NCBI GenBank assembly: GCA_046563655.1
Contig: CM102290.1
Span: forward strand, 1,550,001 to 1,614,000
Source: Yuukianura sp. NJ FZ-2021
Lineage: Eukaryota
Direction of reading: 5' to 3'
DNA length: 64,000 nucleotides
Made by a program: the position numbers and the translations under genes. Every line of letters begins with the position of its first letter. Position 1 is the first letter of the stretch. A model generated the notes under the pieces. That model was given only the letters and a program-made list of their open reading frames with translations. It made no database searches and was not told where the DNA came from. This document shows, piece after piece, positions 59,450 to 64,000 of this stretch.

Positions 59450-60110
59450 GGCAGTGGGAATTTTGAAAAATTTTTGAAAAAATCCATGCACTATAGTCCA
59501 TGGATCTTTTCAAAATTTGACGAAAAACTTGATGTTCGATTTTGGAGTTTTCAAAATTTCTAAAAATTCTTCATGATTTTTAAAAGCCTCTCGTGAAGAG
59601 ATTTAGGTCTATATCGCTTTCCGTTCACGAGATATAAATTTTCAAAATTTTATTTTAATTTTCAAAAAATTTAAAAATTCATATCTCGGGAATGGAAAGA
59701 GATAGAGAGGTAAACTCTTCACTCCTCAATTCACAAAAATATGGAGTATTTTTAGAAATTTTAAAAAGGTACCCTCAGATTTTGACCAAATTTCGAAAAA
59801 ATCCATGGCCTATAGTCCATGGTTTTCTTCAAAATTTGACCAAAATCTTGATGTTCGATTTTGGCGTTTTCAAAATTTCTAAAAATTCTTCATATTTATT
59901 GAAAATTACTCGCGAAGAGATTAGGTCTCTATCACTTTCAGTTCCCGAAATATAAACTAACCTTTTCGAAAATTAAAATAAAATTTTGAAAAAATCTTTT
60001 TGTCAACCTGCCTAGGACAGGTGATTGTTACCTAATATATAACAAAATAAATTAATTCATTAAAAAAATTTTTGAAAATGTATATCTCGAGATTGGAAAG
60101 TGGTTCTCTA
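59450..60110. repeat. AT-rich element with a ~150-bp direct repeat and internal inverted repeats
   Basis: AAAAATCCATG..CTATAGTCCATGG...CTTGATGTTCGATTTTGG.GTTTTCAAAATTTCTAAAAATTCTTCAT occurs at ~59477 and ~59797. GAGATAT/ATATCTC inverted pairs are also present. Confidence 0.7.
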
Positions 60111-60928
60111 TTTTTGTGATTCCAGGGACTCAGGGACTGACTAACCCTGGTCACATGCCACAGTGAAACGGATTGAATCGATATTTTAACTTTATGGACA
60201 AGAGAGGAGAAAGTCCATTTTCCTGAAAGAAATCTTTAGTAGTAGTATACAAAGTTTCTTGGTTACCAAATTACAATTCCTTCCAAAGTTACGAGAATCT
60301 ACAGGGATTTATGCAAAATTAACACAAACTCAAACTTTCTCCAAATGTCTTTTCTTCTATATTTTCATCCCAAAACTTTCAAAAGTAGGAAATCAAAAAA
60401 GTTTTTCTCCCTGGGTTTCTGAAAACACATAGTTCGTAATGGCCCACTAAACAAAAAATTTTCCTGTCTAAAAACTGTAAACTGGGCCATCATGAAATGA
60501 AGAAAAAACTTGGCAGTATTTTTGTTTCCAGTAGTTGTTGCCAACTTGAACTTTTTAGAAAATAAAGAGTAGGAGGAGGAGGAGGGAGTAACTATGTTTT
60601 TATTTTATAATAGAGAAAATTTTCACAAAATAATAAATTCTCCTTATCATAAATCTTTGAAAAAGGGGGTGTGGGCAACAGGAACCTTTTTAGAAAAAGA
60701 CTTTTTTCAAAATGATTTATTTCAAGTCCTAGAATTCTGAAAAAACGTCCTAAATTAAAAAAAAGAAGTAAAAGGAAGTTCTAAAAATCCGAGAGAGTGA
60801 AAGTTGTTCACTTGTAAGAAATTTTTAAAAGATTTTTCAACTTTTAGAAATCCTGTTTTTGTTGTTTGAGTAAAAATGGTTGATAAAATTGTTGACGAAA
60901 ATTCGGATGTGAACTGAATTGTTTGTTT

Positions 60929-61622
60929 TTACATGAAAACATCGGATTCACTACAACAGTGTTGTTTCTTTTCATCTTCAAACGTTACAGTTTTTGATCG
61001 GAGAGTGCGTGTTAGGGTTGACACGGCCTTGTCGGCGTCTAGAGAGGCCAAAGGTCGTGGTCCTTGTGGTTGTTGCGGGTTGTAGGATTGGAGGTCACTA
61101 CTACTGCCATTCACAACGTCAAGACTTGACTGTTGCTGTGGTTGTGGCATGAAGAAGTCCGTTACCATACTTTTTGGCACAAAGTATTCTTCGCCCTACG
61201 ATCAAATCGTGGCGGCCCGCATAAATCGTACCGAGAAAAAAAGAAAATTAAAAGAAAATATTTTGTTTAGTAATTGAATTGGATCATATCCATATCAAAG
61301 TTTCGCTTTTTTTTATAAGTGAAGTAATCTGTTCCGGTATTTTTTTTGAATGGAATATTTTATGTTCACTAAATCATTTTCATGTTTAGAAAATCAACAA
61401 AGTGTAAAAAAAAATTCCAAATCAGTGACACCGAATAAATTAAGACTAATGGGATCCATTTTACAAAAAAACTGAAAACTGTCTTCTTTTTTTTGAAATT
61501 CATAAAACCTTTGAACTCACTGGAGAATTGAAGATGTCGAGTGAGATGTTATGTCCAACGTACTTTTCGTCATGGCCGACATCACCGTTAGGCCCTCCCG
61601 AGTTGTCACCAATGTCAGGGAG
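60929..61622 (-). CDS. In-frame C-terminal extension of the K2P channel beyond the UGA (34 codons plus a spliced 88-aa exon); putative readthrough product of 431 aa
   Basis: Open frame 61622-61521, phase-0 donor CCA|GTGAGT, acceptor CGTAG|GGC at 61195, and exon 61195-60929 GEEYFVPKS...KTVTFEDE...SDVFM*. Confidence 0.7.
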
Positions 61623-62916
61623 TCAGGATATGGGCGGATGATAGCCTCTGCGATTGGCTCTTCTGCGCAGAATCTCATCTTGGACCAAATTGAAAACGGT
61701 GGAGATGAGAGCCATTCCAAGAAGAATGTATATCGAGGAGGCTATCAGAGATATCTAAAAAAAACAATAGGATGGGCTCAGTTTCACGCTTTTCGGATCC
61801 AATTTGAAAGTTAGATGTGATGTTTTTCAGTTTCAATAAAATGTTGGCAGTTTTGAAATTTGGCTTTTCAAAAACAAACTTACGCTCTTAGAATTTGGAT
61901 CCAACATGCCACCAAATCCAATTGTGGCCAGTGATGCAAAACAGAAGAAAATGGCGTCCACAAAGTTCCAACCTTCGAGCCACCAGAAGACAACAGCCCC
62001 ACCACAGAGATACAGAAACAGAAGAGTCAAGGACAACGGAATTGGCACACCACTGGAAACTCTTCGCTAAAATTTCAAAATTCTTTTCAAAAGAGTATTT
62101 TTCAAAAAAAGTAAAATTTCCAAGCTGTTTTTTTAAAATTACAGTAAGTTTGGCGTAGCTGTGGCGCGTAAGTCTTGAAAAAAAGTCTCCGACGGTAGCC
62201 AAGTAGCAAAGGGTGAGAGGGATGCCGACGCATGCGTAAAAAACTGTTAGGATTCGCCCAGGCAGAGACTTTGGACTCACAGTACCATAACCTGAAATTT
62301 CAAAAAAAAAAACAAAAAAAAAAAAACAGTTTTCAAAAAAAAATTTCAAAATTTTACGCTAGAGATCACTTACCTATAGTTGTGATTAAAGTCAAACAGT
62401 AGAGAATCGTTGCAGGAAAACTTGTAAATGAAGTGTCATCACATGGAATGACATTTGGACTGGATTTACGCTGACTCCCGAAGTACTCCGACACGAAAAC
62501 GTATTTCATAATTTCATCTTGAAATTTTTGTAACTCCACTTCCGCTACTTGTGACCAGTTCGACTCATAAAACACATTCAGTTCCACCGTCAGCGTCCTG
62601 AAATTCAGAAATCAGCTAAAACTGAAAACTCAAAATTTATGAAATGAATAATTTTTTTTATTATCAAAAAACTTTACCAGAGGCGCTGAACCGTTGCATT
62701 TCGAAGCAAGTCCAGGTCAATGTCCTCCTGACTCGGTTTGGTTATGGGCTCTTCTTCGACATGATGACTCTCAATAAAGAAAAACGCAACGGCTCCACAA
62801 ACAATATAAACAATCACCATGATACATACTGACAGGATGGACAGGCAACAGTTTCTTGGCGCCTCTGGACCGCCGCCGCGGCTCTTCTGACCACCGTCAG
62901 CTCTTGGCGGGACCAT
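61623..62916 (-). CDS. Two-pore-domain (K2P/TWiK-family) potassium channel, 308 aa to first stop (5 exons)
   Basis: Exons 62916-62678, 62597-62374, 62291-62143, 62066-61884, 61754-61623. TM1 YIVCGAVAFFFIES, cap LRNATVQRLWTLTVELNVFYESNW, P1 LITTIGYG, TM2 YACVGIPLTLCYL, P2 FASLATIGFGG, TM4 YILLGMALISTVFNLVQDE. Confidence 0.9.
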
Positions 62917-63677: not shown

Positions 63678-63900
63678 TCACCTGACCCCTTCCTCCTTGA
63701 GTATTCCTATTCTAGAGGCAATTCGTTTAACAGAGGCAATGACTTCTTGTTGACCGAGATTGAAGCACATGGCAATGAGAGCCATTCCGAGGAGCAGGTA
63801 CACGGAACAGAAAATGAAGGGAACCTGGATAGCATCTCGTAAGTTACTCACATCCACCGAGGTTCCTGGAACCAAGTCACCGAATCCAATCGTACTCAAA
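63678..63900 (-). CDS. 3' exon of a second K2P/TWiK-family potassium channel (remainder outside window)
   Basis: Acceptor TTTTGTAG| at 63901. LSTIGFGDLVPG (P2) and CSVYLLLGMALIAMCFNLGQQEV (TM4). Confidence 0.9.
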
Positions 63901-64000
63901 CTACAAAACACCAAAACCAATATTCATAAATTCAAATTCATGTCAACACTTTATCTCTAAACGAGAAACAGAAGCCATGGACACTTTCCGGTTCCATGCC

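Follow-up and report, generated by a model that had tools for sequence, protein, structure and literature searches.

The question raised by this locus is how a potassium channel gene can carry a stop codon at the end of its reading frame and still encode protein, in the same frame, beyond that stop. The gene lies on the minus strand of a 64,000-nt stretch of DNA from Yuukianura sp. NJ FZ-2021 (GenBank assembly GCA_046563655.1, contig CM102290.1, positions 1,550,001 to 1,614,000), here called the window and numbered from its first letter. It encodes a two-pore-domain (K2P) potassium channel whose frame reaches a TGA (61625-61623) after the fourth transmembrane segment (TM4). An earlier note on this DNA had described this TGA as followed by CTC, 34 open codons, a donor CCA/GTGAGT (a slash within a motif marks a splice junction), and a phase-0 exon of 88 codons. 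All of these were confirmed in the sequence, and the spliced exons gave the two products that had been named, of 308 amino acids (to the UGA) and 431 amino acids (with the UGA position counted). We consider that the gene probably undergoes programmed UGA readthrough into a spliced, conserved C-terminal extension, in springtail-like genomes, and the comparison of related loci leads us to give this reading a rough probability of 0.8.

The comparison of orthologues, which had been named as the check on this proposal, was made with loci found through the tail exon. A four-sequence tail alignment (A1) used as the query against metagenome contigs matched 162 stretches, and three loci were confirmed (L001 to L003). 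All three have a K2P gene upstream of the tail exon, and L003 shares a nearly identical exon 5 with Folsomia candida. Allacma fusca and F. candida were compared through protein models only. At the orthologous codon, all four DNA sequences read ...H[PR]PIS TGA CTN, and only the C and U are invariant after the UGA. The stop context is TCC TGA CTC in the window, TCC TGA CTA in L001, TCC TGA CTA G in L002, and TCC TGA CTG in L003. In the same order, the stop is followed by 34, 26, 29, and 29 post-stop codons, by the donors GTGAGT, GTAAGA, GTAAGT, and GTAAGT, by introns of 325, 149, 545, and 99 nt, and by the second stops TAA, TAG, TAG, and TGA. The finding of TGA in all four refutes a sense codon, a private allele, and a sequencing error as alternatives, and the comparison as a whole supported the proposal, with UGA-C conserved in four of four and protein-level constraint downstream. 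Both annotated F. candida isoforms end in ...HYHRPIS, i.e., at the conserved stop position.

The extension is conserved in its layout as well as in its motifs. None of the four post-stop segments contains an in-frame stop or Met/ATG, and near the end of each stands the motif [VIL]G(L)x[HN]I[ST]LD, which is also present in Allacma. The extension intron keeps its position and phase 0 in all four loci, with phase-0 donors of the form GTRAG. The tail exons of L001 to L003 follow the pattern G[ED]EYFVPKSMVT...SKTVTFEDEK...FM and then a stop; alignment A1 shows no variation in VPKSMVT, KTVTFEDEK, or the terminal FM among its four tail sequences, and in every locus the second stop, variable in identity, comes right after ...FM. 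The A. fusca model P0001 (747 amino acids) ends in ...EEYFVPKSMVTEF...KTVTFEDEK...DVFM and gave a pairwise E value of 3e-12 against the tail exon of the window. A profile-free search of 1.84 billion representatives with the tail exon returned five matches, among them P0051 and P0052, which are genomic open reading frames of the same exon from other genomes; the P0052 cluster holds two more. At least five sequences have kept the tail exon. The other three matches (P0050, P0053, and P0054) were dropped as tandem-repeat proteins matching the Q/P-rich middle of the query. Searched against longer proteins, the 88-amino-acid tail exon matched nothing at an E value of ≤0.01, the query being short and the database huge, and neither the post-stop segment nor the tail exon matched a Pfam family.

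The manner in which these sequences have diverged points to translation past the stop. Codon statistics were taken pairwise (window versus L001 and L002 versus L003) and are not PhyloCSF or phylogenetic values. For the window and L001, 26 post-stop codons were aligned, 22 of which are identical as protein. The 22 nucleotide differences are distributed 3, 1, and 18 over the first, second, and third codon positions, with proportions of nonsynonymous (pN) and synonymous (pS) differences of 0.098 and 0.96; the binomial probability of at least 18 of 22 differences at third positions is 4e-6. The single indel in this pair is exactly 8 codons. For L002 and L003, the post-stop differences are 8, 7, and 16 (pN, 0.27; pS, 0.68; P = 0.027), with the conservation mostly in the second half, and those in the tail exon are 8, 1, and 38. 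Set against 200 shuffles, the alignment of the window with L001 had z scores of 11.4 in the post-stop segment and 31.7 in exon 5, whereas the last intron gave -1.35, intron 4 gave 1.11, and the 150 nt that follow the tail stop gave 0.93. Exon 5 itself has a pN of 0.061, a pS of 0.60, and a synonymous divergence (dS) of 1.2 in this pair, i.e., its synonymous sites are saturated. Since the differences are biased to third positions while noncoding DNA is unalignable, the post-stop segment appears to be translated in the channel frame. The first seven post-stop codons (LPDIGDN) encode the same protein in the window and L001, and their four differences are all synonymous and at third positions (P = 0.012). 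These codons can be reached in frame only through the TGA, because GA, not AG, stands before them. Judged from the aligned DNA, these comparisons demonstrate that the stop and its context are conserved and that purifying selection acts at the protein level on the post-stop frame and the tail exon.

The C terminus of the short form, VQ[DE]EI...HYH.PIS, is itself a conserved protein sequence, and the short form is probably real because the piece up to PIS is conserved as protein. Under programmed readthrough, most ribosomes would probably terminate at the UGA (61625-61623) and release the 308-amino-acid channel ending in ...GYHPPIS, and a fraction would decode the UGA as sense, the likely route being a near-cognate tRNA in the leaky UGA-CU context. 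The ribosomes reading through would add 34 codons, cross the exon junction 61521/61195, and end at the TAA at 60931-60929. The resulting 431-amino-acid isoform would carry a largely unstructured tail with three conserved motifs, namely, G[ED]EYFVPKSMVT[ED]F, SKTVTFEDEK, and a hydrophobic [VL]FM C terminus. From these patterns of conservation we infer both the decoding event and the short form as the major product.

The stop context is UGA-C in all four loci, UGA-CUA in two (L001 and L002), and UGA-CUAG in one (L002). Efficient readthrough at UGA-CUA(G) was shown experimentally in OPRL1, OPRK1, AQP4, and MAPK10, without 3' structure (PMC4132726), and UGA-C is enriched in the high-confidence Drosophila readthrough genes, rising with the confidence tier (PMC13278127). 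By a published rule, which the present case fits, readthrough is preferred to a splice variant when the interval from the stop to the predicted 3' splice site bears a coding signature (PMC5100048). The features by which readthrough genes are recognized are found together here: a conserved stop, a frame-0 coding signature between the two stops, no in-frame ATG, poor upstream GTs, and a leaky context. The codons before the stop are kept at the nucleotide level beyond protein need, with CCC and TCC invariant in four of four despite the saturated synonymous sites (window 61623-61641, L001 507-527, L002 6835-6855, and L003 9797-9817). This conservation may be part of the readthrough signal.

Several points weigh against readthrough. 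The first 10 post-stop codons are poorly kept between L002 and L003 (3/10 identical), and the argument for coding right after the stop therefore rests on the pair formed by the window and L001. Frame 1 of the post-stop segment is likewise stop-free in the window and L001, so that the openness of the 34 codons is, by itself, weak evidence. The three orthologous loci are metagenome contigs whose taxa were placed only by their similarity to Folsomia and Allacma. The EEYFVPKS/KTVTFEDEK tail is absent from the insect TWK-7-like homologues examined (12 of 43 listed relatives), which end 25 to 40 residues past TM4, and the tail is therefore lineage restricted as far as seen. Finally, a splice that removes the stop is formally in frame in all four loci, because a suitable phase-0 AG is present in each, and the Allacma model P0001 uses such a splice, with FNL joined straight to ENQVGLHHISL....

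This stop-skipping splice (an exitron) is the alternative that survives best, and we regard it as quite improbable. The intron would run from the GT in a Val codon of exon 5 (61685; FNL/V) to a phase-0 AG at 61562, or to the acceptor at 61195, and the stop would be removed without recoding. In the earlier note, the stretch from TM4 to the UGA was said to show no GT donor able to skip the stop. It in fact holds two GTs, at 61697 and 61685, and no other possible stop-skipping donor; both are in phase 0, which makes them frame compatible with the acceptor at 61195, and that at 61562 is in phase 0 as well. All four loci have a phase-0 AG within a few codons upstream of xxG[L]xHISLD (AAG/TAC in the window, GAG/AAA in L001, CAG/CAA in L002, and CAG/CAG in L003), and the length of the exitron, about 100 to 123 nt, is akin to that of the gene's other introns (76 to 129 nt). 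However, both GTs are very poor donors. Those at the Val codon (GTCCAA, GTCCAG, GTACAA, and GTTCAA) lack A at +4 and G at +5 in every case, carry a pyrimidine at +3 in three of four, and vary like Val/Gln wobble, and the one at 61697 reads GTTTTC, whereas 9/9 accepted donors examined are GT[AG]A. The acceptor in the window, GACGAAAAG/, has no pyrimidine tract, and the AG shifts by 1 to 3 codons between species, the homologous Lys codon being AAG in the window and AAA in L001. The LPDIGDN codons, which would be intronic, show coding constraint when the window is compared with L001, and a splice that bypasses the stop fails to explain this constraint directly after the TGA. In addition, the first stop is TGA plus CT in four of four, whereas the second stop varies freely, and the two annotated Folsomia isoforms include no stop-skipping form.

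Since the donors are weak, the AG drifts, the skipped piece is conserved, LPDIGDN is constrained, and TGA-CT is invariant, we take the Allacma exitron to be a gene-predictor artifact rather than a mechanism. Compared with L002, the Allacma model lacks exactly 33 residues across the stop (VQEEI...PIS-stop-...PVQQ), with the post-stop motif and the tail present. Leaving out these residues is likely a gene predictor's way of getting past the in-frame stop, and the 99-nt intron added in the model is likely an artifact. The same model looks fused from two tandem K2P genes, with residues 1 to ~390 corresponding to the upstream paralogue and residues ~397 to 747 to this gene, and this fusion is likely an annotation artifact also. 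Folsomia isoforms X1 (P0046) and X2 (P0002) differ only in FNLVQ versus FNFQ (3 nt), exactly at the Val-codon GT. At this site the Folsomia-like L003 reads AAT TTA GTT CAA, without an intron; an intron after FN was considered as the cause of the X1/X2 difference and was dropped, exon 5 of L003 being uninterrupted.

Editing and selenocysteine had also been listed as alternative mechanisms to be checked, and the checks gave neither a conserved editing-type duplex (RNAalifold and inverted repeats) nor a selenocysteine insertion sequence (SECIS; Rfam). In the first of these, A-to-I editing would change UGA to UGG (Trp) in some transcripts, and the extension would be made by ordinary decoding of the edited mRNA. 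Neuronal ion-channel mRNAs of arthropods are often edited, and editing would leave the same comparative signature, a conserved TGA with a conserved in-frame downstream open reading frame. We nevertheless hold it to be highly improbable. RNAalifold on the four species gave 0 conserved pairs between 40 nt before the stop and the donor, the 89-nt fold at the stop had a z score of +0.72 (153 of 200 shuffles fold as well or better), and no inverted repeat lies over the stop in the four loci among the pairs listed (the 5 longest of 25 for the window and L002). A conserved intronic complementary site is unlikely because the introns are unalignable between species, although a partner sequence at a greater distance may exist. 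The same folds give no support to a stem that the earlier note had placed just 3' of the stop, and the 3' arm of that stem sits in the 8-codon segment missing from L001. Exon 5 wholly contains an inverted repeat of 16 nt (88% complementary; 61639-61654 and 61732-61747), whose end is 14 nt short of the stop; the repeat is probably due to chance, because no counterpart was reported in L001.

More improbable still is that there is no extension at all, the TGA being an ordinary terminator and the tail exon belonging to a separate small gene or to a transcript that skips exon 5. The donor of exon 4 is also in phase 0, so that exon 4 would join the tail exon in frame, and the Folsomia annotation ends at PIS. 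However, the frame-0 constraint on the post-stop segment would then be unexplained, and this segment adjoins the stop without a break and lacks an in-frame ATG in all four loci. Skipping of exon 5 would moreover remove TM4, and for the tail exon no conserved start is seen upstream of GEEYF. Least probable of all is a selenocysteine at the UGA, directed by a SECIS in the 3' untranslated region: a conserved in-frame UGA with downstream coding is a selenoprotein signature too, but Rfam scans of window positions 59500 to 62000 (E ≤ 10; no other match near the gene) and of the whole of L001, L002, and L003 (E ≤ 1) found no SECIS, the homologues seen have no Cys at the stop position, and that position would fall in an unstructured cytoplasmic tail without a redox motif.

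Programmed readthrough is abundant in insects. The Drosophila and Anopheles sets come from comparative genomics and ribosome profiling (PMC5100048, PMC3840789, and PMC13278127), and the present gene resembles them in its conserved stop followed by a frame-0 coding signature to the next stop, in its UGA-C context, in being a membrane/neuronal type of gene, and in having an extension that is predicted, at low confidence, to be mostly coil and is weakly compatible with disorder. It differs from them in its springtail-like host, in being a K2P gene, and in its long 122-amino-acid extension with a conserved intron 78 to 102 nt past the stop. The Drosophila K2P names looked for are absent from the two searchable files among the three supplements of PMC5100048; the third may bear on novelty. 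Similarity to the vertebrate UGA-CUAG genes (OPRL1, OPRK1, AQP4, MAPK10, and MDH1; PMC4132726) is seen in the UGA-CUAG of L002 and the UGA-CUA of L001, in the use of UGA throughout, and in the conservation of the first post-stop bases across deep divergence. In contrast, the window has UGA-CUC and L003 has UGA-CUG, and the vertebrate extensions are short and unspliced. Alternative initiation in TREK-1/K2P2.1 and TREK-2/K2P10.1 (from titles cited in PMC6392083) likewise yields two isoforms from one K2P mRNA by ribosome choice, but the choice there is of a start codon, at the N terminus, and here it would be at a stop codon and affect a C-terminal tail. Insect TWK-7-like/KCNK K2P channels belong to the same family and have the same domain order as this gene, without the tail in those examined. 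Our literature searches found no paper that links K2P channels to readthrough or reports readthrough in Collembola.

If the reading is correct, the locus would extend programmed UGA readthrough, as a clean comparative case, beyond the model sets of dipterans and vertebrates. Its four natural contexts (UGA-CUC, -CUA, -CUAG, and -CUG) would form a ready series for asking what drives readthrough in hexapods. Current annotations would then be seen to mishandle the locus, since the Folsomia gene is truncated at the stop and the Allacma gene is given an invented 99-nt intron and a fusion of neighboring channel genes.

The extension intron also raises the possibility, which we consider unlikely, that readthrough is coupled to mRNA surveillance. 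Exon-junction-dependent decay follows a rule of roughly 50 nt, and the conserved intron lies 78 to 102 nt past the UGA in all four genomes. By terminating at the UGA, a ribosome would fail to displace a junction complex and would flag the mRNA for decay; by reading through, it would clear the complex. If this were true, the readthrough frequency would set the lifetime of the channel mRNA together with the isoform ratio, a translational gate on leak conductance. Such a gate would be older than the split between the lineages of Folsomia (Entomobryomorpha) and Allacma (Symphypleona).

What the tail would do can be approached through its predicted fold and its motifs. A single-sequence fold gave a mean predicted local distance difference test (pLDDT) score of 60.7 and a predicted template modeling (pTM) score of 0.22, with mostly coil and one helix at residues 54 to 67. 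The model thus gives no confident globular fold and is weakly compatible with disorder. The RVxF pattern for docking to protein phosphatase 1 (PP1) is [RK]-x(0,1)-[VI]-{P}-[FW]. KTVTF is present in the tail and, as had been noted, fits this consensus; it is invariant in four of four tails and lies in a low-confidence, mostly coil region, and we take the fit to be a motif resemblance, a pattern match only, that makes it a candidate for PP1 docking. By resemblance only, EDE is presumably like the di-acidic endoplasmic reticulum export signals of K+ channels, and the [VL]FM carboxyl terminus is presumably like a class II PDZ ligand. AQP4 is a membrane channel whose readthrough tail alters localization. 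We infer that the tail may serve the leak channel as a module for regulation or trafficking, and the effect of its short invariant sequence (VPKSMVT, SKTVTFEDEK, and the terminal FM) on channel trafficking or regulation is testable.

The host gene has five exons up to the first stop (Table 1). Its introns 1 to 4 are 80, 82, 76, and 129 nt long, with GTAA/GTGA donors and TTTCAG/TTTTAG acceptors. Pfam Ion_trans_2 (PF07885) matches exon 4 with an E value of 3.4e-8 and 33.7 bits (cutoff, 22.5), and the homologues carry PF07885 too. Two pore motifs, TIG/YG across the junction of exons 2 and 3 and TIGFG in exon 4, were read from the sequence, as were hydrophobic segments in exons 1, 3, 4, and 5, which give four transmembrane segments in one subunit. 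On these predicted features, the gene is a TWK-7/KCNK-like K2P channel. The named proteins nearest to exon 2 are those of springtails (A. fusca, 51% identity; F. candida, 57%), and insect relatives, annotated as TWK-7-like or KCNK-like, are 30 to 40% identical to the Folsomia protein. The insect or crustacean setting first assumed for this DNA was accordingly not upheld, as the nearest named proteins point to a springtail-like hexapod.

Table 1. Features of the K2P channel gene and its candidate readthrough extension in the window
Feature	Position	Strand	Remarks
Exon 1	62678..62916	-	ATG 62916-62914; donor TG/GTAAAG; tblastn match to Allacma P0001 residues 403-462
Exon 2	62374..62597	-	Extracellular cap and start of pore 1 (...LITTIG)
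Exon 3	62143..62291	-	Finishes TIGYG, then TM2
Exon 4	61884..62066	-	TM3 and pore 2 (TIGFG); phase-0 donor AGC/GTAAGT
Exon 5, coding part	61626..61754	-	TM4 and short proximal tail ending FNLVQDEILRRRANRRGYHPPIS; exon with stop, 61754-61623
Two weak phase-0 GTs before the stop	61680..61697	-	ACC/GTTTTC at 61697; TTG/GTCCAA at 61685 (Val codon of FNLVQ)
Candidate leaky stop TGA	61623..61625	-	Context CCC ATA TCC TGA CTC, after ...GYHPPIS
Post-stop segment, 34 in-frame sense codons (LPDIGDNSGGPNGDVGHDEKYVGHNISLDIFNSP)	61521..61622	-	Up to donor CCA/GTGAGT (G at 61520)
Extension intron, 325 nt, GTGAGT...TCGTAG	61196..61520	-	Phase 0; acceptor ...tcgtag/GGC at 61195
Tail exon, 88 codons (GEEYFVPKSMVTDF...KTVTFEDEKK...SDVFM)	60932..61195	-	Invariant VPKSMVT, KTVTFEDEK, and terminal FM
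Second stop TAA, predicted end of extended isoform	60929..60931	-	Directly after ...FM

A second K2P gene stands directly upstream in tandem, with its last visible exon at 63678-63923 on the minus strand. This exon matches Ion_trans_2 with an E value of 3.2e-6 and is 67% identical to residues 263 to 331 of the Allacma model. Its apparent TGA (63680-63678) overlaps a donor-like CAG/GTGAAG, and the upstream gene may therefore continue by splicing. A tandem K2P pair is also found in L003 (5731-7163 and 8583-10198) and is implied too by the fused Allacma model, and this synteny supports the orthology of the window gene and its relatives. Beyond the second stop of the extension, two hairpin-like elements (59595-59720 and 59749-59885) match several unrelated families of microRNA precursors, from plants and from animals, on both strands. 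With all Rfam scores far under the gathering level, they look like miniature inverted-repeat transposable elements (MITE-like; small inverted-repeat transposon copies) rather than microRNA genes.

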